Source: Candidatus Peribacteria bacterium
GTDB lineage: Bacteria; Patescibacteriota; Gracilibacteria; Peribacterales; Peribacteraceae
Assembly: GCA_041691135.1 (NCBI GenBank)
Contig: JBEPVF010000017.1
Span: forward strand, 1 to 26,195
Reading direction: 5' to 3'
DNA: 26,195 bases
Position numbers and translations under genes: made by a program. The number at the start of each line of letters is the position of its first letter. Positions within the stretch are counted from its first letter, which is position 1. This document shows, piece after piece, positions 2,093 through 26,195 of the stretch. The notes under the pieces are model-generated. The model ran no database searches. It worked only from the letters and a program-made list of their open reading frames with translations, and was not told where the DNA came from.

Positions 2093-4027
2093 CTACTCCT
2101 CCGCCAGCATCCCCTGGCTCTGGAGCTCGACCATTTCGCGGTAAATGGCGCAGGTTTTCATCAGCTGTTCATGTGGAGCTACATCGATCAGCTCTCCTTT
2201 ATGGAAAACGGCGATGCGGTCGACGGAGCGGACGGTAGAGAGACGATGGGCGATGATGCAGGCCGTGCGGCCTTCGACCAGACTTCTGATTCCTTCCTGC
2301 ACCTGTTTCTCGGTCACCGAATCGAGTGCGCTGGTTGCTTCATCGAGCACCACGATCTTGGGTCTCTTTAAGATGGCGCGGGCAATTGCCACACGCTGAC
2401 GCTGTCCGCCGCTCAGGCGGATGCCGCGATCACCGATCAATGTATGGTATCCATTCGGCAACGATGCGATAAATTCATCGGCCGCCGCACGTCTGGCCGC
2501 CTCTTTTACTTCTTCGGTTGTTGCATCGGGACGCGCATAGCGGATGTTCTCCAGAATCGAATCGTTGAACATGATATTTTCCTGCAGCACCAGTCCGATC
2601 TGACTGCGCCACCATTCCATGTCGAGCTCGCGCAGATCCACGCCGTCGATCAGGATCCGTCCCTTCGTCACGTCGTAGAAACGATTGATCAACATGGCCA
2701 GCGTCGTTTTGCCGGCGCCGGAGTGTCCTACGAAGGCGATGTGTTCGCCGGGTTTGATGACCAGATTTATATTGTGCAGCACTTCGCCAGGATGGCGGTC
2801 TTCTTCGTCGGGACATTCGATCGTGCTGCTCTTCTTCTCCTTGTCTTCGTGGCCAGGAATCGCACGCACCAATTCTGCATCATCAGACTCTTCGTCCGTC
2901 GGCTTTATATCAATCGCTGGCGTGGGTGCTTCTTCGCTGGTATCGACCAGGACTTTTTCCGCAGCATAGGCAAAACACACATCTTCGAAATGAATTTCCC
3001 CTTTAAGCCCATTCGGCACAATTGGTTTTTCCACGTTCTTCACGTCCACTGGCATCGAGAGGATTTCTTCGGCCAGCCGTACGCGGCCCACGCGCTTGTT
3101 CCACTGTGGCATGATCCCGCCGAGCATTTCGAATGGAGTGAGGACGCGGAAGAACGACGATTGGAAAAAATACACCTCACCCAGCGACAGCAAGTCCTGC
3201 GTGTATAAATAGATACCGATTGAAATCAGCAAGATGCGCGTGAGCATGAAAAAGTTCACCGCTTCCACCATCGCCCAGCGCCGGTTCACTTGTTTCTGTT
3301 TGCTGTAGGTTTCCAAGTGGGTCGCATGCATCGTCGATTCTTCCCGGTCTTCCTGTGCGCCCGACTTCACCGAATAAATATTCGTGACCGCGTCGTACGC
3401 GCGACCGATGGAAGTGACCCATAAACGATTTGCCTCCTCCTGGAACTTCATCGTCCGGCGCGTGCCGATCACCGCAATCAACAGAAAGAAACCGATGCTT
3501 CCGATCAGGATGAGAGCCAGCAGGGGATTGATCAGAAAACCGATGACCAGGAAGACGATGGCTGACAGGAACGATGGCACAAACTGCACGATCAGTTCGC
3601 GTTGGAGGTCAGCCATGGTGTCGGCTGCATTGTCCAGAATCTTCACCACTTCTCCCGACTTCTGACGCGTGTGAAACGAAATGCCCAAATGAAGCACGTG
3701 ATTGTAGATGCGTTCGCGATAATCAAGGATCAACCACTCGCTTAATTTCCAACTGATGAATTTTTCGGTCGTCTGAATTGCCGACATCAGCACGAACAGG
3801 CCGGCCCATGCGCTGAAGATCATCTTGTAGTTCACCGCCGCGCCGGTTTTGGCCAGTAACATCTGATCGATCGCGTAGCGCGCGTACAGCGGCTCGGTAA
3901 TCCAGATACCTGCTGTCAGTAGAATAAAGATGAATAGCGCCGCATATCCCCCTGGATAGCGCCTTATTTGTTGCCGGATGATGTGCAGAATTACGTTCAA
4001 CTTCTTAATTGTTAGAGTATCTAACAA
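2093..4027 (-). CDS. ABC exporter, fused TMD-NBD half transporter (MsbA/Atm1-like)
   Basis: N-terminal transmembrane helices, Walker A GHSGAGKT, Q-loop VLQE, signature LSGGQRQR, Walker B VVLDEATSALD, H-loop IAHRLST. The TTG start is uncertain. Confidence 0.93.
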   Translation of the reverse strand: MLDTLTIKKLNVILHIIRQQIRRYPGGYAALFIFILLTAGIWITEPLYARYAIDQMLLAKTGAAVNYKMIFSAWAGLFVLMSAIQTTEKFISWKLSEWLILDYRERIYNHVLHLGISFHTRQKSGEVVKILDNAADTMADLQRELIVQFVPSFLSAIVFLVIGFLINPLLALILIGSIGFFLLIAVIGTRRTMKFQEEANRLWVTSIGRAYDAVTNIYSVKSGAQEDREESTMHATHLETYSKQKQVNRRWAMVEAVNFFMLTRILLISIGIYLYTQDLLSLGEVYFFQSSFFRVLTPFEMLGGIMPQWNKRVGRVRLAEEILSMPVDVKNVEKPIVPNGLKGEIHFEDVCFAYAAEKVLVDTSEEAPTPAIDIKPTDEESDDAELVRAIPGHEDKEKKSSTIECPDEEDRHPGEVLHNINLVIKPGEHIAFVGHSGAGKTTLAMLINRFYDVTKGRILIDGVDLRELDMEWWRSQIGLVLQENIMFNDSILENIRYARPDATTEEVKEAARRAAADEFIASLPNGYHTLIGDRGIRLSGGQRQRVAIARAILKRPKIVVLDEATSALDSVTEKQVQEGIRSLVEGRTACIIAHRLSTVRSVDRIAVFHKGELIDVAPHEQLMKTCAIYREMVELQSQGMLAEE

Positions 4028-7383: not shown

Positions 7384-8940
7384 TTATTTCGCTGTTTCCT
7401 CGATTCGTCGTTCGCGGATTACATTCACCTTGATGATTCCTGGGTAGGTCAGTTCCGCTTCGACTTTCTTGGCGATGTCCTTGGCTAACTTTTCCTGCTC
7501 CAGATCGTTAATTTTGCCAGTATCGACATACACACGGATCTCGCGGCCGGCACTGATGGCGAACGCTTTCTGGACGCCAGGGAAGGTCTTGGCTACATCT
7601 TCGAGTGCACGCAGACGCTTGAAATACTCTTCGATTGATTCGCGGCGAGCCCCTGGTCGAGCGCCGGAGATGGCATCGGCAGCGGCGACTACGAACGCTT
7701 CGGGCGAGGCGATGGGGATATCTTCATGGTGCGCGGCCACACAGTGGATCACTTCGGGTCGTACTTTGAACCGCTTGCAGATCTCCACGCCGATCTCGAC
7801 ATGCGTGCCAGTTACCTCATGGTCGAGGGCCTTGCCGATATCGTGCAATAGACAACCTTCCACGACGATCTGCGGATCAGCGCCGATTTCCTCGGCCAAC
7901 ATGCGACCGATGTGCGCCATCTCTACCGAATGCTTCAAAACGTTCTGTCCGTAGCTGGTACGGAAGCGCAGACGCCCGATGATCTTCAGCAGATCGGCCG
8001 GGTAGCCGGCGATACCGAGTTCCTCAGTCGCGCGCTTGCCGAACTCAAGCATCATCTTGCTCACCTGCTCCTTCACCTTCGCCACGATTTCTTCAATTCT
8101 TGCCGGTTGAATGCGGCCATCCTGGATCAGTTTCTCCATCGACAGCTTCGCCACGTAGCGGCGCACCAGATCGAAGCCCGAGACGATAATGGCGCCTGGG
8201 GTGTCATCAATGATGATATCGACGCCGGTTGCCTGTTCGAAGGCGATAATGTTGCGTCCTTCTTTGCCGATGATCTTGCCTTTCACGTCATCGCTCGGCA
8301 GCTGCACCACGGTCGCGGTCGATTCACTGGCTACTTCGGCGGCGTAGCGCTGCATGGCTTCTGACATCAGGTTCTTCGCTTTATCTTCGACCTCCTGTTC
8401 CATTTCTTCGCGTCGAAGTTTCAGTTGTGATGCGAATTGGGTCGAGAACTCTTTTTCCAGCTCCTCCCAGAGCTGCTTCTTGGCCTCTTCTTCGGTCAAC
8501 TTGGCAGCCGCCTGCAAGGCTTCGCGGTGCTTCTGGCTGGCGCTGGAAAGTTCCAGTTTCAGCGCTTCATTTTCCTTTTCCTGTTCTGCCAGATGAACGC
8601 GCTGGCGCTCCATCTCTTTTACTTTGGTATCGAGGCCTTTCTCTTTTTCCTCCAGCCGCCCCTGTTCTTTTTCGAGCTTGGCTTCCATTTCGGTGGCCTG
8701 GATCTTCGCTTCAGTCAAAATATCTTTGGCAGCTGCCTTGGCTTCGACTTCAGCTGCTTTAATCTGATTCTGTGCTTCCGAGATCTTGGACTGAAGTTTT
8801 TCGAGTGTACGTTCCTGTTCCAGGATCTGATTCTGTAACGTCGAACTGATTTTCTTTCCTTTACTAAAGAAGAACCAACCAGCGGCGAGTCCCAGGAGGA
8901 GTCCTCCAAGGAGAAAGGGGATATCGATGATGAAATTCAT
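7384..8940 (-). CDS. rny: Ribonuclease Y
   Basis: N-terminal TM, long coiled coil, KH (KGKIIGKEGRNI), RTSYGQNVLKHS, HD motif LLHDIGKA, HHED, ADAISGARPGARRE. Start set at ATG 8940 (MNFII) rather than TTG 8982. Confidence 0.97.
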   Translation of the reverse strand: MNFIIDIPFLLGGLLLGLAAGWFFFSKGKKISSTLQNQILEQERTLEKLQSKISEAQNQIKAAEVEAKAAAKDILTEAKIQATEMEAKLEKEQGRLEEKEKGLDTKVKEMERQRVHLAEQEKENEALKLELSSASQKHREALQAAAKLTEEEAKKQLWEELEKEFSTQFASQLKLRREEMEQEVEDKAKNLMSEAMQRYAAEVASESTATVVQLPSDDVKGKIIGKEGRNIIAFEQATGVDIIIDDTPGAIIVSGFDLVRRYVAKLSMEKLIQDGRIQPARIEEIVAKVKEQVSKMMLEFGKRATEELGIAGYPADLLKIIGRLRFRTSYGQNVLKHSVEMAHIGRMLAEEIGADPQIVVEGCLLHDIGKALDHEVTGTHVEIGVEICKRFKVRPEVIHCVAAHHEDIPIASPEAFVVAAADAISGARPGARRESIEEYFKRLRALEDVAKTFPGVQKAFAISAGREIRVYVDTGKINDLEQEKLAKDIAKKVEAELTYPGIIKVNVIRERRIEETAK

Positions 8941-8950
8941 AGGACATGAG

Positions 8951-9070
8951 GGGCAGTGGATAGTGGAACTGCCTCTCCTCAAAAATTTTTACTTCAAGGG
9001 ACGAGCCGTTGGAATGCGAGAAAATTGAGCATCGTTCTTAAAGGGGAGATTCGTCAGTTGAGGAGAGAAG
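8951..9070 (-). ncRNA. Candidate structured RNA / 5' leader upstream of rny (6S-like position)
   Basis: Perfect 10-bp closing stem CTCTCCTCAA (8973-8982) / TTGAGGAGAG (9058-9067), inner stems GACGA/TCGTC and ATGC/GCAT, large unpaired segments, a further GGCAGT/ACTGCC hairpin. GC-TATACT -10 at 9078-9083. Confidence 0.4.
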
Positions 9071-13566: not shown

Positions 13567-13621
13567 GATGTCAAGTTCCCGACGAACTCCGCTCTCCTTA
13601 TTTTTTTTAAGATTTTTCACT

Positions 13622-15031
13622 ATGGCTACCGCCCTGGATTCATCAACTATGCCAGAACTTAATCTGGCTGCCGAAGAAGCAACGATTCAAGAAATTGTCT
13701 CTCAAATGAGAGACCATGAAACGCCCATAGAAGTCCTTGATAGTGCATTGGCGCGTGGTATCGAAGTGATTAAGCGCATCAATTTACAAGTAATGGCACT
13801 CGTGCAGGACACTCGTATGGACGTAAAACAAGTTCTCGCAAACAGTGTTCGCACAGTTGATATGATGGTGGATCTGCGCAATGCAGGCCTTGATGCCGTG
13901 CGTGAACGGGCGGCAGACATGCGAAAGGCAGTAGATGGCGAGGTAAGTTTTATTGCCTATCTACGGGATATGGGACAACGAGAAGGGTTGAGCGAAGCAG
14001 AAATAATACAGAAAATCCAAGGACTTAATGCTCAGGGTCAGCAGAAACGGCATGAGGTCTTAGTTCCATTGATGACATTTGCCGATCGTTTATTGGCATT
14101 ACAGTCAGAGATGGACCTAAGTGTGCAGATAACCGGTGACGGTACAACAACACAGCGTCAATTGCCGACTGTTCGTCAGGAGCAATTTTTCGTCGACTGG
14201 GTTCAGGGGGTTCGTTCTCATGGTGCAAAGGAGATTAGTGATGATGACGTGGATCAATATTTGACGTCTCTGGATGATGATCAAGTTGCAGCGGCCTATG
14301 GCAGAATTCTCGATGCAATTGAGTCGATGCCTGCCGATTTTCGCGCAATGTATAGCGGCAAGTTGCCCACATACCGCGATTTTTTGCTGGCGATGTCCGA
14401 GAAGCGTCGTGATCAACAGACCGAAAAACATACGATTCATCGTTTGCTTGTCGGTGCGGCAATCGGTGAACGAGTTGAAGGCTTAGAACCTGATGCCGAA
14501 TGCTGGCTGGATATTTTGAGAAAACTGGATGAGGTACGAGGTTATATTTTAGATGTCTGTACTGATACTGGAAGCAGAGCTTTACTTCAAATTCAGTCGC
14601 CTGATCATGTAGAGGTACTGCGTGGACATTTACCTACGCGATACCCTACGCAAAATGTATTGGAAGGTCTCGAACTGGAGCAGGATACTGACTATGTTGA
14701 CGTCCCAAATAGCAAACCGCTGTTTGTTCATAAATACAAACTTTCCGAAATCCGCGAATCACTCCAGCGACTGCCCGAAGGACTGACGGTCGATTTTATG
14801 CTCGTGTTTCCAGAGAACGAGCGTGAAGCTGAAAAAGTAGAATTAGTGCGTGATGGAAATGGCATTCGCTATGTGACACCACAGTCGTATTACCCTTTGG
14901 TCGAAGAGCTCCTCGAGCATCCTGGCCGTCACATCATTCCTATGTCGCTCACGTTCACTTTTAATCAGTTGCTCGATCTGGAACCCTCCAAAACTGCATA
15001 TGTCCAACCTGCTGCACGAGAAACTGAGTGA
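13622..15031 (+). CDS. Hypothetical protein, acidic, helical N-terminal half (469 aa)
   Basis: Long open frame; ATG 13622 follows a T-rich leader (the 13568 extension SSSRRTPLSLFFLRFFT looks like UTR); no recognisable motif. Confidence 0.75.
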   Translation: MATALDSSTMPELNLAAEEATIQEIVSQMRDHETPIEVLDSALARGIEVIKRINLQVMALVQDTRMDVKQVLANSVRTVDMMVDLRNAGLDAVRERAADMRKAVDGEVSFIAYLRDMGQREGLSEAEIIQKIQGLNAQGQQKRHEVLVPLMTFADRLLALQSEMDLSVQITGDGTTTQRQLPTVRQEQFFVDWVQGVRSHGAKEISDDDVDQYLTSLDDDQVAAAYGRILDAIESMPADFRAMYSGKLPTYRDFLLAMSEKRRDQQTEKHTIHRLLVGAAIGERVEGLEPDAECWLDILRKLDEVRGYILDVCTDTGSRALLQIQSPDHVEVLRGHLPTRYPTQNVLEGLELEQDTDYVDVPNSKPLFVHKYKLSEIRESLQRLPEGLTVDFMLVFPENEREAEKVELVRDGNGIRYVTPQSYYPLVEELLEHPGRHIIPMSLTFTFNQLLDLEPSKTAYVQPAARETE

Positions 15032-15869
15032 TGCGTTCATAGATAGCGCGTCGGATCTTCTTCCCACTGCGACGGCGATACGTGCCACTTCAGATGAGGT
15101 TCGTCGACGTTTTGCGCAGCACGTGATGGAAACCATCGTGAAGAATCAAAACGAAGGCGAAAAATTATCCGACGAGCACGATGCCGTAACTAATGAGGCG
15201 TGGCGCATGTTTACAATTTTTGAACGTGGCATTGCACAGCTTGGAAATCGCCGAGATCGACTTTCCCGTTGGCTGCGCTCTTTGGCTACATCGATGCATT
15301 TTGTAGTCCCTGCATCCGATGATGAATTCCTACGACTTGTGGCGAATAAGAGTCCCGGTGTTCTGCAGGGAGCTTTGTCTGTAGCTGATATTATAAATGG
15401 AGAAGATCTTGTTTTAAGTTCGTCACAGTTGTATGCCGCACTTGCGCTGATGATGGATTCATTGGTGCAGACAACTTTAGTGTCCGAGAATACCAGCAAA
15501 GCTACATTTACCAGTGTTAGACCGGGGGAAGAAGTAAATATCTCGACATATATAAATGGTGGGTCAGATGACGTTGCAGTGCACAGAACTTTTTCTTCAA
15601 ATGTTCTTGTGTCTAATGCTGAACATTCTCAATCAGCTCAAGGGGAAGGTATTCATACGCAATCACATTCTCCATGGGAATTAGAAACTAGTAATCAGGT
15701 AGAAAACGCAGTCGATGCGTCTGTAGCGAGAAAAAAATTGGAAGTTTTACTTAGATTCCAAGGGCCATCAACTCTTATTGGCGGGCCGTTGTGCAACTTG
15801 CTTCGCTACTACGGTAAGGAATTCCGGGACGGAAATATTCAACTTATTGGTGAAAAACATGCTGCATAA
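15000..15869 (+). CDS. Hypothetical protein (289 aa)
   Basis: Open frame overlapping the previous gene by 32 nt; no recognisable motif. Confidence 0.7.
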   Translation: MSNLLHEKLSDAFIDSASDLLPTATAIRATSDEVRRRFAQHVMETIVKNQNEGEKLSDEHDAVTNEAWRMFTIFERGIAQLGNRRDRLSRWLRSLATSMHFVVPASDDEFLRLVANKSPGVLQGALSVADIINGEDLVLSSSQLYAALALMMDSLVQTTLVSENTSKATFTSVRPGEEVNISTYINGGSDDVAVHRTFSSNVLVSNAEHSQSAQGEGIHTQSHSPWELETSNQVENAVDASVARKKLEVLLRFQGPSTLIGGPLCNLLRYYGKEFRDGNIQLIGEKHAA

Positions 15870-15874
15870 AGAAA

Positions 15875-15903
15875 TTGCTATAAAATTGATTTTAGTTTAC
15901 AAT
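15875..15903 (+). promoter_or_regulatory. sigma70-type promoter, near-leaderless transcript
   Basis: TTGCTA-17 nt-TACAAT; ATG 15912 lies 8 nt after the -10. Confidence 0.6.
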
Positions 15904-15911
15904 AGATGTTG

Positions 15912-16349
15912 ATGTCTGATTCAGCGCACTACGAAAAATCGGCGAAAAAGGATGTTTCTGAAGGGACTACTGATTCAAAGGATAAAGCGCAAAGTGCGGA
16001 GCCTGAGAAGAAAAAAGAAGATAAGAAACACAATAAAGAAAAACATGACGAAAAGCATGATAAGCCAGAGCATGTGATAAAAGCAGGCAATTCAGTGCGT
16101 ACTAAGTTGGAAAAGCTTTTTACTCTTCATGGACCTCACTCTCCAATCGGTTGGGTTCTACGCTACATAAAGTCAAAATTTTTGGGAATTCCAATGGAAA
16201 TCCCTATGGACACCACAAAACCTACAGAGGCACCGAAAGATAACAGTCATCAAGCTCATGCTGTGCATGACCACCCCCAAGGGTCTCATATTGGCAAAAA
16301 TAACCCCAAGCCCGCAGATGCCCACAGTAACCATGGGCATGGTCACTGA
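15912..16349 (+). CDS. Hypothetical Lys/His-rich, largely disordered protein ending HSNHGHGH
   Basis: Charged low-complexity N-terminus, one amphipathic segment (PIGWVLRYIKSKFLG), His-rich C-terminus. Start chosen from promoter spacing. Confidence 0.72.
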   Translation: MSDSAHYEKSAKKDVSEGTTDSKDKAQSAEPEKKKEDKKHNKEKHDEKHDKPEHVIKAGNSVRTKLEKLFTLHGPHSPIGWVLRYIKSKFLGIPMEIPMDTTKPTEAPKDNSHQAHAVHDHPQGSHIGKNNPKPADAHSNHGHGH

Positions 16350-16439: not shown

Positions 16440-18692
16440 ATGACTGATACACACGAACCAATATTGTCGCCCGAGAATCCTGATGCATACCGAATAAGTG
16501 TGCGACAAGAGTATAATTTGCTAGCGGACCAACTAGGACTGCCTACTTTTGCTACATTACCTGGATTAAGTGCTGCAGATATCGAAGCAGGAATCTCTAA
16601 AATAGTAGACACTATGGCAGGTGTTCGAGGCTCAATTTTTACTATTCTTGAAAAGAAATCTGCTCTTGCGAAATTAAAATCAAAATTCGAACAAGAGATA
16701 AGAGTTTCACCCATTAATTCTTTTGAGTTTATCGGCGATGCTGAGAAGTTGGCATTTGCAAGAGCGGATGCACTACTCAAGATAGTGTATGAAAATTTCC
16801 GCAATGAGGATATACAGACATTGCTGACCACAATGAGTACAGCTATCGCAGATCCTCGTGTGCAACTTATTCTCGATAGTAATATTGATGATCGGCAGAA
16901 AGTTTTAGCTTTGTCTACAATTCAGAAGCACGGTACAGCGCTTGATATTTTGAATAGCTCAGCTACCAAAGAAAAACATGCACGTCATGAGCTTAAAGAG
17001 AATCAACATTTGATGCGTATAGCAAGTAACGTTCAGCAAATTGGATCTTTGGAGTTGCCAGCTTATAATGAGACTGAGACAAAGGTTGGAATCGCAGCGA
17101 TGCGTGTTGTAATGGATAATGCTTTAGCAGCATTTGGGCTTAATAATGGCGATCTGATTAACTTGTACGATAGGCTGACTTCTGATCAACAAGATATTGC
17201 GAGAGATGCAAATGTACCTCAAGGATTTCCTCGAGTGGATCTTCCAGCGCAGTCTGCAACCACTGATCCTATAAGTCTTGTTACCACGCCCGCGCAATCT
17301 GAGAGGACAAATAACCAGCGACTGGATAATATTATCGAGTTGGCAAAGAAACAAATGGCTGAATACGATGCTGCACGTAAAAAGTCCTCTCAGACAATAA
17401 AAGTTTTGGAAGAAATGGGAAGAAATCTACAGGATCAACATATAGCTCACGCTGCTTTAGGTAATACTGATTACCCGAACATACACAGAGTTTTTCAAAT
17501 GTCAGGCACTGCTCCTTATGATGTACAAAGGGATAATATCACTTCGGGTAAGGTGAATCTTGCACAGTTGATGTATGAATATAAGCGTGCTTTGCATGAG
17601 GCGAATCCGGCTCATTCGGTTGACCTTCAACCCGAGGAACATTACAAAGAGCATATTGATCATGCGAAGAAAGAGTTAAATGAAATTTTGCATAGTAAAA
17701 AGGATGCAGGACCGGTGACGGCTGAAACCATATGGTCGATTGTGCGCCATGGACTATTAAAAGAAGGTGTTCGTGGACCAGTGCAAGACTCAACATTGGC
17801 ATACATGCAAGCAAGACTTGATCTTACACCTGAGAAAACTTTTCAGATTGAAGAGATGAAGAGGCAATCTTTCCCTGATTTACATATAGAAGGAGGAGAA
17901 GCCACTAAGCAACGGGTTGAGGAACAAAAAGTGTGGGCTGAAGCAAATGGACTCAGCTTCTCAGAAGAAAGCAAAAAAAGGTATGAAGTGTATATGAATC
18001 GTTTATTCTCGAAGGGATTCGTTGGAGTGGGTCTGACTGAAAGAAACTTTGGGCGTCATAGTTTCCCTGAACTTATTAATGCTTATTTTGCAACGAGGTA
18101 TATTTATAATTTACCTCAGAACCACAAGCTGCGAATCCATAATAGCAGCGTGACGCAACTATTAGGGAATTTACACGATGCAATTATCCGGAGGTTCAAT
18201 GTCAATTACTCACAAGCACCACAGCAGGTAGGAATGAGTCCTAAAGAGATGGAGGTAGCCCTAGGCGAGGATGCCGCTGCTAAAATAGAGTCTGTTCCGG
18301 CGGCAGTGCGGCTCGAAGCTTTCAATGCTTACCTAAATAGTGATGCCTACTATTCAAATACACGTCGAGGTGAAATCGAAACAATAGCTATACGTGCACT
18401 CAGACCTATCCAGGAAGAGACTGATAAGCGCAAAAAGAAACAGGAAGCCTGGAGCAATAAAAGAAAAATAGCTACTGACGTAGTTACATATATTCCTTCC
18501 AAGACTCTAGGGTTTTTGAAGAACACGTCCAAAGCTGCCTGGAATAAGCGCAAGACTATTGCTTGGTATACCACTTTAGGTGCAGCTGCAGGTTCATTTA
18601 TTCCTATATTCGGCACTGCAATTGGCGCAGCGGCTGGTGCCACAATAGCAGCTTTTTCTTCATCTGAATCTCATTCAGGTCATGGACATTAA
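16440..18692 (+). CDS. Hypothetical 750-aa helical protein with a C-terminal glycine-zipper hydrophobic hairpin and GHGH tail
   Basis: Helical/coiled-coil composition; basic patch KRKKK..NKRK..NKRK; then LGAAAGSFIPIFGTAIGAAAGATIAAF; ends SHSGHGH; no N-terminal signal peptide. Confidence 0.85.
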   Translation: MTDTHEPILSPENPDAYRISVRQEYNLLADQLGLPTFATLPGLSAADIEAGISKIVDTMAGVRGSIFTILEKKSALAKLKSKFEQEIRVSPINSFEFIGDAEKLAFARADALLKIVYENFRNEDIQTLLTTMSTAIADPRVQLILDSNIDDRQKVLALSTIQKHGTALDILNSSATKEKHARHELKENQHLMRIASNVQQIGSLELPAYNETETKVGIAAMRVVMDNALAAFGLNNGDLINLYDRLTSDQQDIARDANVPQGFPRVDLPAQSATTDPISLVTTPAQSERTNNQRLDNIIELAKKQMAEYDAARKKSSQTIKVLEEMGRNLQDQHIAHAALGNTDYPNIHRVFQMSGTAPYDVQRDNITSGKVNLAQLMYEYKRALHEANPAHSVDLQPEEHYKEHIDHAKKELNEILHSKKDAGPVTAETIWSIVRHGLLKEGVRGPVQDSTLAYMQARLDLTPEKTFQIEEMKRQSFPDLHIEGGEATKQRVEEQKVWAEANGLSFSEESKKRYEVYMNRLFSKGFVGVGLTERNFGRHSFPELINAYFATRYIYNLPQNHKLRIHNSSVTQLLGNLHDAIIRRFNVNYSQAPQQVGMSPKEMEVALGEDAAAKIESVPAAVRLEAFNAYLNSDAYYSNTRRGEIETIAIRALRPIQEETDKRKKKQEAWSNKRKIATDVVTYIPSKTLGFLKNTSKAAWNKRKTIAWYTTLGAAAGSFIPIFGTAIGAAAGATIAAFSSSESHSGHGH

Positions 18693-18696
18693 CACT

Positions 18697-20697
18697 ATGA
18701 AAACAACAAACACATACACAGCTTTCTCTCAGAACCCACTCGTCAAAGAGCGGAGGCTGTGTTTTATGGCATTTGGTGTACCAGGTGCCGGTGCCGAAAT
18801 ATTTGGTAGTGGAAAGGAAGGGTCAAAAGAATGGGCGAATCGTGGTATCGCCGGGAGAACATTGGATTTTCTTCGCGACTCACTTTTACTTTCCAGTTTG
18901 TTAGAGCAGCGGCTAAAAACAGTTGATTTTCATACTGCCGAAAGATTAATCGATCAGGAGGAATGGATTGATACATTTCGCGATACTCGAAATGATGTTT
19001 TTGCTCCACCCAATGCAGTTCCGGTCGATGAAACCAAGGAGTTTGGACCGAGAGAATTCCTTCTTTCACTCACGCCGGAAGATCGTCAGAAAGTGTATCT
19101 TGAGTTCATTGATAAATATATTCCTGAAAGTGTTCAAAGAGATCCGGCAAATATCGGTATTTTTGATCCTGATAATCGAGCAAATCCAGCTGTTCGTTTT
19201 GCGAACTTAAACAAGCCTGCTAGTAAGGCCATTGTTAATGATGCACTGGCAGGGATGTTTGATCTTGAAGGTATAGCATGGAATGGAAACTCAAAGGAAA
19301 TCGCAAAAGCAAGTTTACAACAGCACTACAAAGCTGCTCCCAGTGGCAGTCTACGGCATTCCTTAACTGATGACTTTAAGGAGGCTCTTCATTATCAAAA
19401 GGAAGTTGCTGGCAATATGCGTCCGCTAACCCCGGATACACTTCGTTCAGATATTCCTGCATCACTGCTTCGGGGTGCATTGAATCCAGAAATCGGTGTG
19501 ATAACTCCCACTAGGTTCAATACTCTTACAAAGGATCTCCAGCGTGTTGCATCTCAAAGAGATTTGGAAAAAGGAAAAACACAACGCGAGGTTGGTAAAC
19601 TTAGAGGTGAAGCCGAAGCACGTCTGGAGCACGAAACTACCGAAGTAGCAGACATTTGGAGGAACATGAATATCATTCAAAAAGGAGTCCTGATTGCTGG
19701 TGTCGTATATTTGGCTACTAAATTTAAGAAAACAGCCACTGTAATTGGTATTCTGGCAGCTTCCGTTTATTACGGAAGGGCATTTGTTTTCAAAGATAAG
19801 ACACCCGGAAAAACTATTTCTGATTATACTCTAAAGCCATTGGGAGATTGGGCGTCCCAAATGTTCAATAAGAAAATGGGCGTAGGTACAGGGGCCCAAG
19901 GGGCAGTACAGCATACTGAAAAATTGTTCTCATTTTTAGATGCATATCAGAGAAACAAAATGGAAGAGGAAGCAGCCGGGCTTGCCCTCATAAATGATGT
20001 AAAATTTAAGGATATTGTTGCAAACTTCGATATGACTAAACCGCATGTTTCTAATTGGCGGCTCGATACGAGACGCGGAGGACAGATTAATGGGTTTATT
20101 CAAAAGGACATGGAGAACAGGGGTTGGGATGGAAACTATTACAAGTACTTCGAGAACGCAGATAACGTGCAGCAATTGAGTCAAGTGGTTGCGTTTGCTT
20201 TCTACTTAGCTGCGAGCAAGGAACCTCGCAATCTGGAGCGAATTCAGCAAGTAGAAGGTGCAATGCGGAAGTTGGATGCAAATAAGACGTATAACGATCT
20301 GACTGATCCAGCTCTTTCTACATATATGGAACTTGCTCGTGAGGGCGCTGCGATGTACGCGAACAATGATCAGACGATGGGCGATTTTATTGCTGAATCA
20401 TTACAAATGCGTGAAGCAACTGCCATTACAAATGTTGAGAAGAATAATCCGAGTGCCGACTTAATTGAACGTAAGAAAGTTGCAGCGAAAGGCATTGCCG
20501 CTCGAGAGTTTGGCTATCCGAGTTTTATTATTAAGATTAAAGGCGACAAAGTGTTGTATGGCCAAGATGGTTTGGATACTGCAGAAACACCCGTAGAAAC
20601 AATCCGTGGTGCCACCGCTAAACAAATTGTCGAGAAGTATAATCGATGGGAAGAAATGCCAGCACCTAGGGCAACGGACGATCCTTTCGTACTTTAA
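18697..20697 (+). CDS. Hypothetical 666-aa helical protein with N-terminal ExRL leader and central two-helix hydrophobic segment
   Basis: ATG 4 nt after the upstream TAA; FSQNPLVKERRLCFMA; GVLIAGVVYLA-TKFKK-TATVIGILAASVYYG. Confidence 0.85.
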   Translation: MKTTNTYTAFSQNPLVKERRLCFMAFGVPGAGAEIFGSGKEGSKEWANRGIAGRTLDFLRDSLLLSSLLEQRLKTVDFHTAERLIDQEEWIDTFRDTRNDVFAPPNAVPVDETKEFGPREFLLSLTPEDRQKVYLEFIDKYIPESVQRDPANIGIFDPDNRANPAVRFANLNKPASKAIVNDALAGMFDLEGIAWNGNSKEIAKASLQQHYKAAPSGSLRHSLTDDFKEALHYQKEVAGNMRPLTPDTLRSDIPASLLRGALNPEIGVITPTRFNTLTKDLQRVASQRDLEKGKTQREVGKLRGEAEARLEHETTEVADIWRNMNIIQKGVLIAGVVYLATKFKKTATVIGILAASVYYGRAFVFKDKTPGKTISDYTLKPLGDWASQMFNKKMGVGTGAQGAVQHTEKLFSFLDAYQRNKMEEEAAGLALINDVKFKDIVANFDMTKPHVSNWRLDTRRGGQINGFIQKDMENRGWDGNYYKYFENADNVQQLSQVVAFAFYLAASKEPRNLERIQQVEGAMRKLDANKTYNDLTDPALSTYMELAREGAAMYANNDQTMGDFIAESLQMREATAITNVEKNNPSADLIERKKVAAKGIAAREFGYPSFIIKIKGDKVLYGQDGLDTAETPVETIRGATAKQIVEKYNRWEEMPAPRATDDPFVL

Positions 20698-20698
20698 A

Positions 20699-20754
20699 TC
20701 ACCCGGACGCATACTCCTTCTGCGCACGGGTGAGGTCTGTCTTCCGACGGACCT
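20699..20754. terminator. Tandem hairpins between convergent genes (probable terminator)
   Basis: TCACCCG..CGCA-loop-TGCG..CGGGTGA (20699-20733) and AGGTCTGTC-TTCC-GACGGACCT (20733-20754); no strong U tract. Confidence 0.5.
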
Positions 20755-20771
20755 AGGTTACTTCACGTCGA

Positions 20772-21746
20772 TCACGGAATGTCTATCACAGGATCCCCGA
20801 TTGGGGGAACGACACCCCCGAAAGCGGCGCCATTTTTGCCGTGGGCGGCAGACTCGATACGTATCCTCTCCTCGATGTGCTCAGCCATCTTACTGGCCCA
20901 AGCGTTGGGGTCTTCTCCTACAGGAAACTTCCTGATGCTCATGAACTTGTTCTTGTCGGTGGCGCTCTTACAGCCGCTGAAGACTACGTAAGCGAACAGT
21001 TCGTCGCCGTTCAACTTGTAAGTCACGTTGTTAATGTGCAGATCCGTCGCGTTGTTCTTCTCGACGACGAGTCTCTTCTTAAGCTCGTCTCGCCAGTAGT
21101 TCCTTACCGCAACTTCCAACTGGTCTTCTGCGAAGGAGACTTCGAAGGGTGATTGTTTTGCTTGGAACCCCGCGAGCCCGGCCCGGTTCGCCTCGCGAAC
21201 TTTGAGCACCAGATTGCCGAGGGGAGGTGCCAAGATCTTGGCACCACAGTTGATGACGAGGTACAGGCCCGAGACAAACAGCACAATTGACAGTATCCCG
21301 AGCAGAATTGCCATGAAAGGCTGCGCTCGGTCTACGGTAGTCGTCGACCCAGCCGATGCGTCTGGTGTGGCCGCCGTCGCTTGGGCGGGTCTTCCCTGCC
21401 ACCATGACCATGTTGGGTACCACTCGAGTTCGACTCTGTCTTGCATGGCCTCCCGTGTTGCCCAAAAACCGAGGAAGGAGATCAGTAGTAGAACGATTCC
21501 GCAACCGCAGGAGGGCCAGGCTATAAGGTCCGGGAGCCATCGCCAGTTGGGGTCTGCACCCCCTTGACGGAGGAGCAATGGACCCAGCCAGCACAGGAAC
21601 ACGACGGCCAGAACCAGGGCGAAAAAATTCAACAAGAGGTTCTCGCGTTTCCTGGTGTTTGCCCATGCAAGAAGCATGAGCACCAACAGGATTCCGAGGA
21701 TTTCCAGGATGATTCCTACCACCAAGGCTTGCTGTGCGCCGATCAT
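20772..21746 (-). CDS. Hypothetical membrane protein (about 4 TM helices plus soluble C-terminal domain)
   Basis: Four hydrophobic stretches; ATG 21746 has AAGGGA 7 nt upstream. Alternative start is GTG 21788. Confidence 0.75.
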   Translation of the reverse strand: MIGAQQALVVGIILEILGILLVLMLLAWANTRKRENLLLNFFALVLAVVFLCWLGPLLLRQGGADPNWRWLPDLIAWPSCGCGIVLLLISFLGFWATREAMQDRVELEWYPTWSWWQGRPAQATAATPDASAGSTTTVDRAQPFMAILLGILSIVLFVSGLYLVINCGAKILAPPLGNLVLKVREANRAGLAGFQAKQSPFEVSFAEDQLEVAVRNYWRDELKKRLVVEKNNATDLHINNVTYKLNGDELFAYVVFSGCKSATDKNKFMSIRKFPVGEDPNAWASKMAEHIEERIRIESAAHGKNGAAFGGVVPPIGDPVIDIP

Positions 21747-21818
21747 TCTCGAATCCCTTTCGGCTAGTTTACCAATCACTACTGGCACTTTGGAGCGATT
21801 CCTTAGTGATCTCAGTGA

Positions 21819-21865
21819 AGTGAAGGAGCTATTTGTAAATATAGTACAAATTTTTATTTTGTCAA
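21819..21865 (-). promoter_or_regulatory. Promoter and weak boxA-like element for the 20772 gene
   Basis: TTGACA-16 nt-TATATT, then AGCTCCTTCACT (8/12 to boxA TGCTCTTTAACA). Confidence 0.5.
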
Positions 21866-21897
21866 TATATACTGTTATATCGCTCTAAAATGGCTTA

Positions 21898-21926
21898 TTG
21901 ATTAAAATAAAGAAAAAATGTATAAT
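21898..21926 (+). promoter_or_regulatory. Near-consensus sigma70 promoter, near-leaderless transcript
   Basis: TTGATT-17 nt-TATAAT; ATG 21936 lies 9 nt downstream. ATG 21918 falls inside the promoter spacer. Confidence 0.75.
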
Positions 21927-21935
21927 AGTAATCAA

Positions 21936-22274
21936 ATGACACAAATATCTACAGATGCTACGGCGCTGCCCGAACACTTCATGGAAGATCTCTATGACCT
22001 GCTAATGTGTTCTATTGAGCCTGAATTGATGAGCGCTATCATACCGCAATTGGATACCCTTTATACGGAAGAAAAAAAGTCTCAAAAAAAGAAAAGGTTG
22101 CAGCGTTACCTAAAGGCATTTGAGACTTTTAATCAACGGTTTGATGCGGTGTTTGCTTCGTGGAAAGAGCAATTAATGGAGCGTAGGAATAAAGCGCTGA
22201 ATATTTATAAAACTCAGGAGAAAAATAGAGAAGACGAGCAGATAAAAAATTTAGAACATTCCTTTGACCTATGA
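21936..22274 (+). CDS. Small helical hypothetical protein (112 aa), translationally coupled to the next gene
   Basis: LYDLLMCSIEPEL...KKRLQRYLKAFETF charged helices; ATGA stop/start overlap at 22271-22274. Confidence 0.78.
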   Translation: MTQISTDATALPEHFMEDLYDLLMCSIEPELMSAIIPQLDTLYTEEKKSQKKKRLQRYLKAFETFNQRFDAVFASWKEQLMERRNKALNIYKTQEKNREDEQIKNLEHSFDL

Positions 22275-24112
22275 TGATACATCTACTTTTTAGCCAAAGG
22301 CGTTTCTCTATCTCTGAAAATAGATTGCTCCATATGGCAGATCCTGAACAGCCACGGCAGAAGGTAGTCGATGATATTTATAGTAACTTGAGCAATTCGG
22401 ATTTACCGGAGGAGCAGCGGGATGAAATAAAAAATAAGATTACAGAATTGTATGCGGAAACTAAATTCGCTCGCCAAGAACAGTTAACAAATTTTCTCAA
22501 TCTATTGCGCGGTACTCTTTTAAATGTGGACCCCAAAAATGTTGTACCCATTGATGTTACTGCAAATGAATTGCAAATGATTGTTGTGAAGATGGGTTGG
22601 ACAGATGAAGTGTTCAGTGCAAAGCTTGCCGACGCTCGAAAGGCGCCAAGAGTTGCCATTGATGAAATCGGCAAGGCCAAGTGGGATGCTTACTTGAATA
22701 GAGCTAAATATATTGCGGCAGACCGACGTCGCCCTGAAATATGGGAAATCGCAACTAAAGTCTATTCGATTGCTCAACGTTATGGCTTCAGTCCTGTCAT
22801 TCAAGGGGTGACCGTGGAGCAGTTCATGGGTGAAATCGAAAGTGCCAATCGTCCTCTCCGTTCGAAAGCTATCCCTCTTCAGCGACGCCCGGCTGAACCG
22901 AACTTAACAGGTGGCACAGTACTTGGAGAATACCCATACGATGTGCCAAGCGATTATCGCGGCCAAGAATTTCCCACATCACATGTGCCGTCTGGCTATG
23001 AGCAAAGATCTGCTCAAATGCGTGGGGGGATGCGCGGACAGAATCGTCGCCAGTATGTTTCTACTCCTCAAGGTGAAATGTACCCGGTGGGATCAGACAT
23101 CGATCCTCAGCATCCGAATTCGGTTGTTCGTAATTATGGCGATGGCCCTGTTGATAGAGCTGGTCGGCAAAACAAGCTGAACCGCGCTAGAGGCAAGTTT
23201 CAGAAATCAGTAGCTCCCGACGGCACATATGATCAGACAACTGTCGGCGGCAAAAATATGGCTGCTTACGAACAGCAGTCAACTGACTATGCCAATCAGC
23301 CTGATGCTGATCCGGACGTGATCGACAATAAGCGTCAACATCTGGAGTCTGCGAAGCGACAGTATCTAATTAACGAGCGCTACAATACCGAGATCATGGC
23401 AATCAACGAGGAGTTGAATGGAAAACAAGTGTTTGCAACGGCAAACACTAACGTGGTATCAACCGATCCTTTTTCGTCAATTGTCATCAATATACCTGAT
23501 ACGAAGCGATTGAATCCTGTCACAGATCTTGCAGAAGGTGAAAGCCTTCGAAAGTTCGGTGTATCGAGAATTGTTATCCAGCCAAATAATCCGCGTTCGT
23601 CAGTGGATATTGATCAGTTGAGACAGGCGGGGGTTGCTCTGGAGGCGGAATACGCATTCGATGGAAAAGTGCGAGCGGTCAAACTCACATTTACGGAGCC
23701 AGGTGAATTCACAGTGAGTCAGGGCAATGCCAATACCGGCGCGCGTGGCATGGTCGGACAAATCGATAAGGCGGCGGCCGGCACGTACGAAAGTCCTTTG
23801 GCTAAAGAAAAAGCTCGTTTAGATTTATGGCTGAATGAAGCGAAAAATGAGGCAACCCAGAAGTGGGCGATTCTCTCGAAGGATAAAGGAACTTTCGATC
23901 GCGCTACGAAAACGAATGTGAAATCTAAGTATTACTACCAGCCCGCAAATGCCGATCAGGGAGAGCTGATGTTTGTTGTTAACGGTAACACAATGAGCGT
24001 GTATGACCCGGCTGTAGGGAAAGTACAATTGGTAACCGATCAATTTATGACTTCCATTGAACCTGACCTTGGTGTGAAGAAAACGTGGGACCGTCTCAAT
24101 AAACCACGATAA
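22271..24112 (+). CDS. Hypothetical 613-aa protein with N-terminal ExRL leader and central Q/G/R/P/Y-rich region
   Basis: FSQRRFSISENRLLHMA; helical N-terminal domain, low-complexity middle, beta-rich C-terminus; no TM segment. Confidence 0.85.
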   Translation: MMIHLLFSQRRFSISENRLLHMADPEQPRQKVVDDIYSNLSNSDLPEEQRDEIKNKITELYAETKFARQEQLTNFLNLLRGTLLNVDPKNVVPIDVTANELQMIVVKMGWTDEVFSAKLADARKAPRVAIDEIGKAKWDAYLNRAKYIAADRRRPEIWEIATKVYSIAQRYGFSPVIQGVTVEQFMGEIESANRPLRSKAIPLQRRPAEPNLTGGTVLGEYPYDVPSDYRGQEFPTSHVPSGYEQRSAQMRGGMRGQNRRQYVSTPQGEMYPVGSDIDPQHPNSVVRNYGDGPVDRAGRQNKLNRARGKFQKSVAPDGTYDQTTVGGKNMAAYEQQSTDYANQPDADPDVIDNKRQHLESAKRQYLINERYNTEIMAINEELNGKQVFATANTNVVSTDPFSSIVINIPDTKRLNPVTDLAEGESLRKFGVSRIVIQPNNPRSSVDIDQLRQAGVALEAEYAFDGKVRAVKLTFTEPGEFTVSQGNANTGARGMVGQIDKAAAGTYESPLAKEKARLDLWLNEAKNEATQKWAILSKDKGTFDRATKTNVKSKYYYQPANADQGELMFVVNGNTMSVYDPAVGKVQLVTDQFMTSIEPDLGVKKTWDRLNKPR

Positions 24113-24118
24113 TGAAGA

Positions 24119-24138
24119 CCCCCGGATCGCTCCGGGGG
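24119..24138. terminator. GC-rich hairpin between convergent genes
   Basis: CCCCCGGA-TCGC-TCCGGGGG; followed on the minus strand by TCTTCATT. Confidence 0.7.
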
Positions 24139-24149
24139 CAGAGAGAGAA

Positions 24150-24758
24150 TCACTGGTACGCCACGACGCGTCGTACGAGCGAAGGGCTGTAGTACAGGAT
24201 CCGTTTGCCGATTTCCGGAACGCGGACCCATTGGTCGACGATTTCGTATTCATATACCGGCTCGGTTGCCAGACTAAGGGGCACTGCTCGGATATAAGCA
24301 AGATCCGTTTCGATCACGTCCCACTCAACTCGATTGAGGGGATAGCCAACACGGATTTTTTCACTCCAAGTGAGGAGCCGCGCTACACGCTCCGCAGCCG
24401 GATATGGGTACGTGCAGTGTGCCTGGACCGCCGCTCGAAGTGTGGCCGTTTCCGTCTTGAGCGCGGCCAGTTGCTTGTCATGGTCGTTCAGCCGTGCATC
24501 GTGCTCGGCCAGCAGATTGTTGGTTGCGTTTTGCGCCGATTCGAGGCGGGTGACTCGCTGTTCCAGCGAGAGTGCTGGCTCTGGATTAGGCGGCGAGACG
24601 ACAACCTGTACGGCGGCTTTGACGATCGGCGCGGGTCCGCAGGTTTCGATGATTTTTCCCTGTCGGACCAATTCCTTGTAGGCCCGTGCTGCTTCAGCAT
24701 CGGTGAGCCCGGAGACTTGCCCGATCAGTACACATACAATCGCGACTGTTCCCATCAT
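24150..24758 (-). CDS. Hypothetical protein with short hydrophobic N-terminus and a coiled coil
   Basis: AAGGA 7 nt before ATG; GTVAIVCVLIGQ; heptads LEQRVTRLESAQNATNNLLAEHDARLNDHDKQLAALKTETATLRAAV; hairpin follows the stop. Confidence 0.72.
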   Translation of the reverse strand: MMGTVAIVCVLIGQVSGLTDAEAARAYKELVRQGKIIETCGPAPIVKAAVQVVVSPPNPEPALSLEQRVTRLESAQNATNNLLAEHDARLNDHDKQLAALKTETATLRAAVQAHCTYPYPAAERVARLLTWSEKIRVGYPLNRVEWDVIETDLAYIRAVPLSLATEPVYEYEIVDQWVRVPEIGKRILYYSPSLVRRVVAYQ

Positions 24759-24780
24759 GGCGTGTTCCTTAAATATGGTT

Positions 24781-24908
24781 CTCTCCCACGAGTCCCAACT
24801 TGTTCGCGAAGCCGGATCCCGAGAGATAGGCTTCCTGACAACAAATCAGGGGGCGTGGGAAAATATGTCAAAGAGCAATAATTGTGGATCCTATGACGTT
24901 GAAGTCAA
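24781..24908 (-). promoter_or_regulatory. Promoter region, boxA-like element and structured 5' leader of the 24150 gene
   Basis: TTGACT (24903-24908) with candidate -10s CACAAT or TAGGAT; TGCTCTTTGACA at 24866-24877 (11/12 to boxA); three-stem fold at 24781-24863. Confidence 0.5.
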
Positions 24909-24964
24909 AAATCCATTACATACTCTGGCGCGTAGCACAGATTCCTGTACCCTACCGCGGACGC

Positions 24965-26092
24965 ATGGCTACGCTCATCCTCCAAGACGGAACCCGTTTC
25001 GCCGGACAATCATTCGGCGCCAAGGTCGATTCCGACGGAGAGGTGGTTTTTACGACGGGCATGGCGGGATATCCCGAGAGCATGACTGACCCGAGCTTTC
25101 GCGGACAGATCCTCACCTTCACGTATCCGCTGATCGGCAATTACGGTGTGCCCGCCGATGACAAGAACGAGTGGGGTTTTTCCAATAACTTCGAGAGCGA
25201 GAATATTCATCTGCGCGGCATCGTCGTGTCGCAGTACAGCGACGAGTACAGCCACCACGCGGCAGTCAGTTCGCTCGGCCATTGGATGGAGCATCATGGC
25301 GTGCCGGGAATCACGGGCATCGATACGCGGGCGCTGACGAAAAAATTGCGGGAGCATGGGGTGATGTTGGGGAAGATTGTTCAGGATTCAGGAGAAACAA
25401 GAGATTCAAGTGATTCAGGGGAACTCCACATTAAGGATCCGAATGAACTGAATCTTGTTGAAGAAGTATCGTGCAAAGAAGTGATTGTGTACGAGCCAAA
25501 GACCAGTGATCAAAAACCCGTCACGATCATTGCCTACGACTGCGGTATGAAGCGCAATATCATTCGCAGCTTCCTCAAGCGCGGCGTGCGCGTTGTGCGG
25601 GTGCCGTGGAACTTCGATCTCGATTCATACGACGGCAAGTACGATGGCGTGTTCTTCAGCAATGGGCCGGGCAATCCCAAGACCTGTGTGCCGACGATCG
25701 AGAACTTGCGAAAGGGGATTGAGAAAAACATTCCCACGTGGGGCATTTGTCTCGGCAATCAGTTGATGGCTCTCGCCATCGGCGGCGATACGTACAAACT
25801 CAAGTACGGTCACCGCGGAGCGAATCAGCCGTGTGTGGAATGGAAAGACGGCAAAGCAACCGATCGCTGCATCATCACCAGTCAGAACCATGGCTTTGCA
25901 GTGGATGGCGATAAACTTCCGAAAGGTTGGGATGTCTGGTGGCGCAACGCGAACGATGACACGGTCGAAGGACTCAGGCACGAATCCGGCCGCTTCGCAT
26001 CGGTGCAGTTCCATCCGGAAGCAACGCCGGGACCGGAAGATGCAAATTATTTGTTTGATGAGTTTCTGGAAGTGGTGAGAAATAAGAATTAA
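24965..26092 (+). CDS. carA: Carbamoyl-phosphate synthase small (glutaminase) subunit
   Basis: GEVVFTTGMAGYPESMTDPSF, YPLIGNYG, GIDTRALT, SNGPGNP, GICLGNQ, SQNHGFAV, QFHPE (Cys-His-Glu triad). Start set at ATG 24965. Confidence 0.97.
   Translation: MATLILQDGTRFAGQSFGAKVDSDGEVVFTTGMAGYPESMTDPSFRGQILTFTYPLIGNYGVPADDKNEWGFSNNFESENIHLRGIVVSQYSDEYSHHAAVSSLGHWMEHHGVPGITGIDTRALTKKLREHGVMLGKIVQDSGETRDSSDSGELHIKDPNELNLVEEVSCKEVIVYEPKTSDQKPVTIIAYDCGMKRNIIRSFLKRGVRVVRVPWNFDLDSYDGKYDGVFFSNGPGNPKTCVPTIENLRKGIEKNIPTWGICLGNQLMALAIGGDTYKLKYGHRGANQPCVEWKDGKATDRCIITSQNHGFAVDGDKLPKGWDVWWRNANDDTVEGLRHESGRFASVQFHPEATPGPEDANYLFDEFLEVVRNKN
25385..25426 (+). repeat. In-frame 9-nt repeat tract inside carA (DSGETRDSSDSGEL)
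   Basis: GATTCAGGA GAAACAAGA GATTCAAGT GATTCAGGG GAACTC; A-ending codons atypical of the rest of the gene. Confidence 0.7.
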
Positions 26093-26195
26093 TTTGTGAA
26101 AGAGAGCGCCATCTCTTGGCGCGATGGTCAGACTTCAACTCGGCACAAACTTTTCCAATCGCTCAGGGTGTTCTTTTTCTTGTCTCCCCGCGACA

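Follow-up and report, generated by a model that had tools for sequence, protein, structure and literature searches.

Introduction

Does a short peptide at the start of otherwise unrelated large proteins mark them for one common destination? This question is raised by a 26,195-base stretch of DNA (the window, which is the entire contig C17, JBEPVF010000017.1) from the genome of a Candidatus Peribacteria bacterium (GCA_041691135.1; 1.74 Mb in 35 contigs, 52.9% G+C, 92% complete; family Peribacteraceae), in which two large proteins, here called A and B, begin with a similar, non-hydrophobic leader. The lineage is the Peregrinibacteria part of the Candidate Phyla Radiation (CPR, Patescibacteria). 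To our knowledge, CPR bacteria are host-dependent and almost nothing is known about their host-interface proteins or about protein delivery without the Sec system. An initial annotation, made from the letters alone, had proposed the leader of A and B as a candidate signal for an undescribed export or processing pathway. Here we report that the leader is almost certainly a real, translated and selected tag. We give a probability of about 0.5 to the reading that it is a lineage-specific sorting tag for a non-Sec export or envelope-assembly route, with a small protein encoded directly upstream acting as its helper in Peribacteraceae.

A conserved leader at the N-terminus of unrelated proteins

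Protein A (666 aa; 18697..20697, plus strand) reads MKTTNTYTAFSQNPLVKERRLCFMA from its ATG at 18697; F10 is found at 18724, and the codon of A25 ends at 18771. Protein B (613 aa, hydrophilic; 22271..24112, plus strand) reads MMIHLLFSQRRFSISENRLLHMA from its ATG at 22271; here F7 is found at 22289, and the codon of A23 ends at 22339. The two leaders comprise M1 to A25 (18697..18771) and M1 to A23 (22271..22339), and their cores are ERRLCF (residues 18-23, 18748..18765) and ENRLLH (residues 16-21, 22316..22333), respectively. On rereading of the sequence, the letters and coordinates that the initial annotation had given for both leaders were found to be exact, and it was confirmed that most of the shared residues are encoded by different codons (TTC/TTT, TCT/AGC, CAG/CAA, GAG/GAA, AGG/AGA, CTG/TTG). 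Both starts are coupled to the upstream gene, as had been described: the TAA of the gene before A ends at 18692, 4 nt ahead of the ATG of A, and the ATG of B overlaps the stop of the open reading frame (ORF) 21918..22274 (ATGA). The two proteins are otherwise unrelated, since BLASTP among the tagged proteins of this genome showed no similarity at E≤0.1, and no family in Pfam or NCBIfam was found for A, B or the other tagged proteins examined.

Based on 42 aligned leaders, the general motif is [K/A/R]-E-x-R-L-[I/C/L/V]-[F/H/Y/W]. This alignment was anchored on the Glu and the Arg, whose invariance in it is by construction, and the MAFFT alignments A4 and A6 showed the same invariance independently. 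In the 29-row leader alignment A4, E16 and R18 of B are invariant, and in the alignment of the A family (12 sequences, 19-34% identity) E18 and R20 are among only seven invariant columns, with L21 nearly invariant. Purifying selection on the tag is strong. The distance from the Met to the Glu is 6-19 residues in each of the 42 leaders (median 14). The residues ahead of the core are rich in aromatic residues and His and are not fixed, while the core is followed by a short variable stretch and then by a segment rich in Pro (12.4%), Glu (12%), Ala (11.8%) and Gly (8%). Position -3 is S in 13 leaders, +6 is M in nine and +7 is A in ten of the 42, and 'RRF' ahead of the core was seen in the B subfamily only. 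The signal had originally been drawn as an FSQ...MA pattern around the E-x-R-L core; the core was borne out by the alignments, whereas FSQ and MA are local to A and B. The general motif, like the small partner gene 21918..22274 and the class-wide spread described below, had not been part of that description.

The tag is specific to the N-terminus. The exact pattern proposed at first occurs twice in 2.6 million six-frame residues, at the A and B sites themselves. The 864 ORFs that are 300 aa or longer (438,319 residues) contain 15 matches to the core E.R[LMFI][LIVCA][FHYW]; eight of these matches fall within the first 60 residues, compared to 1.8 expected, and six of the eight are leader proteins. 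Additionally, a scoring matrix made exclusively from 25 leaders of other genomes was run on every position of all six-frame ORFs of at least 100 aa. The best five matches, all at ORF starts, were B (26.5), A (22.8), a 1047-aa ORF and a 406-aa ORF on contig C5 (19.2 and 17.0) and a 611-aa ORF on C4 (15.6), and the next ones (15.1 or lower) were scattered and represent noise. With a hidden Markov model (HMM) of the leader, that of A scored 35.2 bits (E 3e-8). Two further ORFs of the genome carry the tag, one of 1086 aa on C12 with the strict core and one of 169 aa on C4 with a degenerate core, so that the genome encodes at least six or seven tagged proteins, which have no other detectable similarity to one another. 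The concentration of core and matrix matches at N-termini, above chance, agrees with the claim of the initial annotation that the leader is a protein-level, N-terminus-specific tag on unrelated large proteins without known families.

Translation of the leader

The stored gene call for A is 643 aa long and starts at the internal Met24 (18766), 23 residues too late, by which the tag is lost. That call is one of two points in favour of a different explanation, namely that the likeness of the leaders is due to chance, or that the letters in question are untranslated sequence before a true start at the Met of 'MA'; the other is a GGAGG located 9 nt upstream of this Met in A. Homologs of A and B decide against it. 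A homolog of A was found in 13 of 60 relatives; the leader is kept in 11 of them, degenerate in one and not assessable in one, and the Met after the core is absent in most, as in MHKKQNTYRHIEQRLCYFAGPLDW of the relative G003. The homolog of B, found in one of the 60 relatives (G004), also keeps the leader, which reads MHLQFPHRRFSLAERRLLFEQQ. A word-based homolog search with A returned A itself as the single match. Because the leader is retained in frame by the homologs, most of which have no later Met, it is translated, and neither loss of the leader in homologs nor initiation at the Met of 'MA', both named at the outset as findings that would speak against the tag, applies. The N-terminal enrichment is far above chance as well.

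The GGAGG carries little weight in this genome, where it stands upstream of 4 of 540 starts compared to 2 of 540 control sites, showing that Shine-Dalgarno sequences are not enriched and that GGAGG is not used at starts. Chance likeness or a mis-called start is therefore hardly credible, and we regard it as refuted. Enriched upstream of the 540 ORF starts were TGCTA, TATAG and ACACT; the last was counted 19 times compared to once in the control and directly precedes the ATG at 18697, and the start at this position fits the start contexts of the genome. The 3' end of the 16S rRNA (C9:2933-4401, minus strand) reads CATTTCCTT, whereas the usual 3' end is CACCTCCTT; the usual anti-Shine-Dalgarno core, CCUCC, is replaced in the tail ...GGATGGAACATTTCCTTACC of this genome. 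Automatic gene calls elsewhere may hide this tag too, and the tag can be used to correct them, as for the product of ORF A.

On contig C9 (22669-24318, minus strand; L022), a 550-codon frame opens right after a stop with the leader-like sequence IPYTGFREHRLIGFGNLEAG. No in-frame ATG, GTG or TTG lies upstream of it, and the frame may encode a tagged protein that starts at an unusual codon.

A small protein encoded upstream of the tagged genes

In Peribacteraceae, a tagged gene usually stands directly after a small gene. This is the case for four of the tagged genes in this genome, where the small ORF (106-118 aa) ends 0-8 nt before the start codon of the leader or overlaps it. The small proteins are homologous to one another and matched nothing in Pfam or NCBIfam. 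The one in the window (21918..22274, plus strand), with its stop overlapping the start of B, has 118 aa, is predicted to be all-helical and belongs to this new family.

The link to the leader was tested independently of the motif, by retrieving 29 loci of relatives via the small protein and reading the next ORF. Within the first 60 residues of that ORF the strict core was present in 20 of the 29 loci, compared to 0.024 expected, and a loose core in five. Of the remaining four, three have no downstream ORF and one has a leaderless ORF. In 21 of the 25 loci with a leader, the leader ORF starts -4 to +11 nt from the stop of the small gene. The link between small gene and leader is not due to chance.

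A profile made from three small proteins detected the family in 112 of 121 Peribacteraceae genomes, with 1-9 copies each, and in 0 of 178 genomes from 33 other families of the class. With a 25-sequence profile, 949 clusters at 50% identity were matched at E≤0.001 in 1.84 billion proteins. The best 150 of these 949 matches are proteins of 104-234 aa with the domain at or near their C-terminal end, and the named members of the family are all labelled 'hypothetical'. The AlphaFold2 (AF2) model of the small protein, with a predicted local distance difference test (pLDDT) score of 89.6, consists of helices at residues 21-33 and 42-48 and a 64-residue helix at 54-117. A Foldseek search of this model against the PDB gave no match at E≤0.001, and the ESM Atlas returned unnamed clusters with scores of 0.89 or lower. 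No forms fused to the small protein were found among longer proteins, which is weak evidence; an apparent 519-aa fusion in the relative G036 turned out to be an artefact of a masked stretch. A control-free complex prediction, in which the small protein (A3) was paired with the N-terminal 50 residues of leader proteins (A4), reached 0.29 against a mark of 0.32 and speaks neither for nor against binding.

Tandem arrays of such cassettes were observed in two relatives (L061, G073:C21:1-14000, and L062, G079:C2:71500-80000). In some of these cassettes the tagged ORF comes after a pair of small genes, the first of which carries an N-terminal extension rich in Gly, Met and Pro.

Spread of the tag

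For the class, 11 Peribacteraceae genomes and 109 other genomes were sampled with a leader profile of 32 positions. All 11 Peribacteraceae genomes were matched (all E≤0.04), and the 109 other genomes gave about 33 matches at E≤0.05 compared to about 5 expected. We inspected 20 of these, mostly in long open frames; 18 head long frames in six other families, for example MLNPMFKSWGFKENRLIFMAGTTP, and the other two are internal to DnaA. The 13 matches outside the inspected 20 are mostly in short frames. Genomes with many in-frame TGA codons in their VirD4/HerA-like matches, which probably use a different genetic code, gave no leader matches other than weak ones (E of 0.08 or higher) in short frames.

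Among 282 Patescibacteria genomes from outside the class there were two matches at E≤0.01, and neither is a leader: one is internal to a long frame and lies in what we take to be a likeness of the KGAPE region of P-type ATPases, and the other is in a 35-codon frame with a stop. The tag is thus class-wide, restricted to the class and older than the detectable small-protein family. Within the family it has also been lost from view together with its partner, as small-protein and leader matches are both missing in G019 and G117 (genus g16) and in G023 and G118 (genus g20). These genomes are the smallest of the family (0.8-0.9 Mb, 92-100% complete), and G019 and G023 have no match to A either.

The coupling to an upstream gene allows for an explanation at the level of translation, in which the leader would be a nascent peptide or re-initiation element and its conservation would reflect coupled translation, not targeting. 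The narrow spacing of -4 to +11 nt in 21 of 25 cassettes and the lack of Shine-Dalgarno usage in this genome are in line with it. The shared residues differ in their codons and therefore conserve no RNA sequence; the leaders of the other families follow unrelated upstream genes or none; and stop-start coupling needs only a junction, not 20 conserved residues with an invariant Glu and Arg. We consider this explanation highly unlikely.

Comparison with known signals and systems

The initial annotation had stated that the leader lacks a Sec h-region, a prepilin motif and the features of a twin-arginine translocation (Tat) signal, which was supported by hydropathy and by searches with N_methyl and TatC. 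No h-region was found in the 42 leaders, where the highest 12-residue Kyte-Doolittle mean within the first 50 residues is between -0.44 and 1.6. A Sec or lipoprotein signal is ruled out by the missing h-region, and the Cys at core position 5, present in 11 of 42 leaders, follows Arg-Leu, which sets it apart from the lipobox pattern. A Tat signal was rejected because the genome, at 92% completeness, has no TatC match and the leaders have no h-region. A type IV prepilin signal was likewise rejected, as N_methyl matched neither A nor B; the same model matches the true pilins of the genome (two proteins on contig C3).

Double-glycine leaders are alike in being short, non-hydrophobic and N-terminal, with a conserved acidic and hydrophobic pattern. 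They differ in their cargo, which here consists of proteins of 170-1100 aa and not of peptides, and in the GG, which no more than 4 of 25 leaders of relatives have at a fixed distance (8-9 residues past the Glu). In addition, no C39 peptidase (PF03412) was found in the genome, and this candidate was dismissed. The same GG pairs, together with the small-residue, Pro-rich stretch after the core and the tight coupling of the helper gene, could be taken to mean that the leader is a cleavable pro-peptide or a degron, so that the proteins would be inactive or short-lived until it is removed, or masked by a protecting small protein. Positions +6 to +15 vary and include no conserved cleavage site, a C39 peptidase was not found, and no protease is linked to the loci, which makes this possibility unlikely.

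The Planctomycetes LEPR motif, which marks extracellular proteins, had been put forward as an established analogy. Like the leader, it is short and non-hydrophobic, contains Glu-x-Arg and is found close to the N-terminus in numerous large proteins of a single lineage; on alignment, E-x-R-x-aliphatic has the same spacing in both. The leader differs by the Leu at +3, the aromatic residue or His at +5, the other lineage and the partner gene. The NCBIfam model NF012209.1 (LEPR-8K; 24 positions, cut-off 17 bits) matched no leader (A, B and three others, at E≤10), and on the whole genome at E≤1 it gave two sub-threshold matches of 12.4 and 12.0 bits, neither of them a leader protein. The LEPR motif therefore serves as an analogy only. 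The better of the two matches belongs to a protein of about 1000 aa on contig C2 (23138-26129; L023), which starts with the Planctomycete-like motif LEGLEDRLVLSA and extends over the overlapping frames 23138..23524 and 23421..26129, possibly due to a frameshift or an assembly error.

Type III chaperone/effector pairs resemble the present arrangement in that a small gene lies directly 5' of a large protein with an unstructured N-terminal recognition element, and in that some of the cargoes have hydrophobic hairpins. In contrast to the leader, type III signals are not conserved in sequence, and the helper described here, with one long and two short helices, has no structural match. A type III pair was rejected because no FHIPEP gate (PF00771) was found in the genome. 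Type VII substrates with small helical partners include PE/PPE proteins and LXG toxins with small helper proteins. Alike are the small helical proteins upstream of polymorphic large ones, the several cassettes per genome and the variable cargo, whereas the common N-terminal part is about 20 residues here and not a helical domain of 100-200 residues. By Pfam, WXG100 and LXG are absent from the tagged and the small proteins, with no genome-wide search made for either. Of the two FtsK_SpoIIIE matches, the strong one is to a 760-aa frame and the weak one (19.6 bits) to the VirD4-like protein described below, and no EssC-type ATPase was seen. The short conserved terminal peptide, the flexible linker and the unrelated cargo also recall encapsulation peptides, from which the system differs by its large helical cargoes, some with hydrophobic hairpins; a microcompartment or encapsulin cargo peptide was rejected since neither a BMC shell protein (PF00936) nor an encapsulin (PF04454) was found in the genome.

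An N-terminal, non-hydrophobic tag with a small helper upstream of variable cargo is thus a known kind of feature, while the E-x-R-L motif, the partner family and the lineage match no curated family. No published description of the leader was found in the literature searched, supplements excluded, and the excerpts of PMC4736985, PMC8080830, PMC9166423, PMC12857230, PMC12102498 and PMC13622651 contain no mention of it.

Proposed role of the leader

The body of A is predicted to be mostly helical, with a weakly hydrophobic pair of segments near residues 340-380. In its AF2 model (pLDDT 67) residues 1-57 are below 50, and for this reason the leader is predicted not to pack on the folded body. A Foldseek search of the PDB with this model gave no match at E≤0.001, and the best one (E 0.09, TM score about 0.1) is meaningless. 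A and B are located in a block between the genes rny and carA whose synteny extends to seven relatives, belonging to six genera. Identity is 67-80% for the flanking genes and 20-35% for the inner ones, from which it follows that the inner genes evolve fast.

A free conserved peptide, a flexible linker and unrelated, fast-evolving bodies together point to a sorting or docking signal with one receptor. In the mechanism that we propose, the tag would be a free, unstructured peptide of about 20 residues in which Glu-x-Arg is invariant and precedes Leu, a position that is aliphatic or Cys, and one that is aromatic or His. The flexible Pro/Glu/Ala/Gly-rich linker would join it to large, fast-evolving and mutually unrelated proteins without Sec signals. 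One common receptor would read the tag and bring these proteins to a single destination, for which a non-Sec route of export or envelope assembly in these host-dependent bacteria is the most likely candidate. In Peribacteraceae, the small helical protein, coupled upstream, would most likely be a dedicated chaperone or adaptor that meets the nascent N-terminus. We infer all three elements, that is, the targeting function of the leader, a destination in export or the envelope and the binding of the leader by the small protein.

The same conserved peptide, flexible linker and unrelated bodies fit equally well with an intracellular docking peptide, which would tether the proteins to a hub in the cytoplasm or at the membrane face, without any crossing of the membrane, and with the small protein as a co-assembling subunit. 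An ATPase could be such a hub, as could the scaffold of a structure for attachment or feeding. Long helices are frequent in the carriers, the 64-residue helix of the small protein suggests coiled-coil assembly, and no export machine co-varies with the tag, all of which suit docking. The distance of 6-19 residues between Met and Glu in 42 of 42 leaders is, however, typical of signals that need a free N-terminus, while docking motifs are less bound to a position, and fast-evolving carriers next to housekeeping flanks with 67-80% identity are better explained by exposed, host-facing proteins. We therefore hold docking to be doubtful, though it deserves to be considered beside the sorting tag.

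As to the machinery that could serve a sorting tag, the genome holds three T2SSE-type ATPases, a VirB4/TraC-like ATPase (648 aa; C3:107079-109025, minus strand), which is 66-86% identical across the family, and a VirD4/TrwB-like (VirD4/HerA-like) ATPase (914 aa; C3:1260-4004, plus strand), of which several paralogs are present per genome of the class. Patescibacteria have a type IV secretion system of the monoderm kind that is essential in a cultured Saccharibacterium, and the excerpts of the two papers concerned name no substrate or secretion signal for it (PMC12857230, PMC12102498). This system resembles the one sought here in its VirB4/VirD4-like ATPases, which are present in this genome, and in being a route of the same phylum that bypasses Sec and has no known cargo. 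It differs in that its parts are found in nearly all genomes tested, with or without the tag, and are unlinked to the tagged loci. Known type IV secretion signals are mostly C-terminal. That the leader is specifically the substrate signal of non-Sec export, through the Patescibacterial type IV system or an unrecognised machine and with the small protein as a secretion chaperone, is a tentative proposal.

Several observations weigh against the sorting-tag reading. When type IV secretion-like and T2SSE ATPases were profiled, as suggested in the initial annotation, none was found to co-vary with the tag: of the 16 family genomes tested, 15 have the VirB4-like ATPase, among them 8 of the 9 in which the small protein is missing; the VirD4/HerA-like ATPase is present in 121 of 121 class genomes; and the T2SSE ATPases do not track the tag. 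None of these ATPase genes was seen to be linked to a tagged locus. Nor is the helper obligatory, as the leader occurs with no small gene adjoining in the A family and in the 1086-aa ORF on C12, the genome G029 keeps tagged proteins with no detectable small protein, and the upstream genes in other families were unmatched by the small-protein profile. Hydrophobic hairpins are present in some of the carriers, and these may simply be membrane proteins of the usual kind with a cytoplasmic N-terminus. The low pLDDT of the leader, taken from a model, is weak evidence of its being free, and since related genomes are not independent, a formal P-value for the small-protein loci overstates the case. Export and surface location are, moreover, hypotheses, as are the cleavage and the effector-like role that the initial annotation had proposed.

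Whatever its destination, the tag singles out in each genome a set of fast-evolving large proteins together with a partner gene, and thereby gives a short and testable list of candidates. Should export prove to be its function, no earlier substrate signal would be on record for a secretion route in this part of the CPR, and the tag would list all proteins (about 6-10 per genome) that these epibionts deliver to the envelope or to host cells.

Gene neighbourhood

The order of genes in the conserved block is rny, a lamin-tail domain (LTD) protein, three fast-evolving ORFs, A, the small gene, B and carA. The boundaries are formed by rny, encoding RNase Y (7384..8982, minus strand), and carA (24884..26092), and several ORFs within them match no family. 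The three fast-evolving ORFs inside the block (487, 289 and 147 aa; 13568..16349, plus strand) are of uncertain membership in the tag system, and for the 487-aa ORF tblastn matches were obtained in G015 and G002 only. Directly 5' of A lies the gene for a leaderless 750-aa protein with a hydrophobic C-terminal tail (16440..18692, plus strand), which is syntenic with A in relatives; in G003 and G015, tblastn located it upstream of A. The minus strand between A and the small gene encodes a multi-pass membrane ORF of 338 aa (20772-21788), for which tblastn gave no match in any of the seven syntenic loci. Elsewhere in the window an ABC exporter without a C39 domain was found at 2093..4027, and an Rfam scan of the window matched no RNA family. 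The LTD protein has 1421 aa (9301-13566, plus strand) and contains five lamin-tail domains, a PKD domain and a weak match to staphylococcal nuclease. It adjoins RNase Y in four of the seven relatives' loci that were compared.

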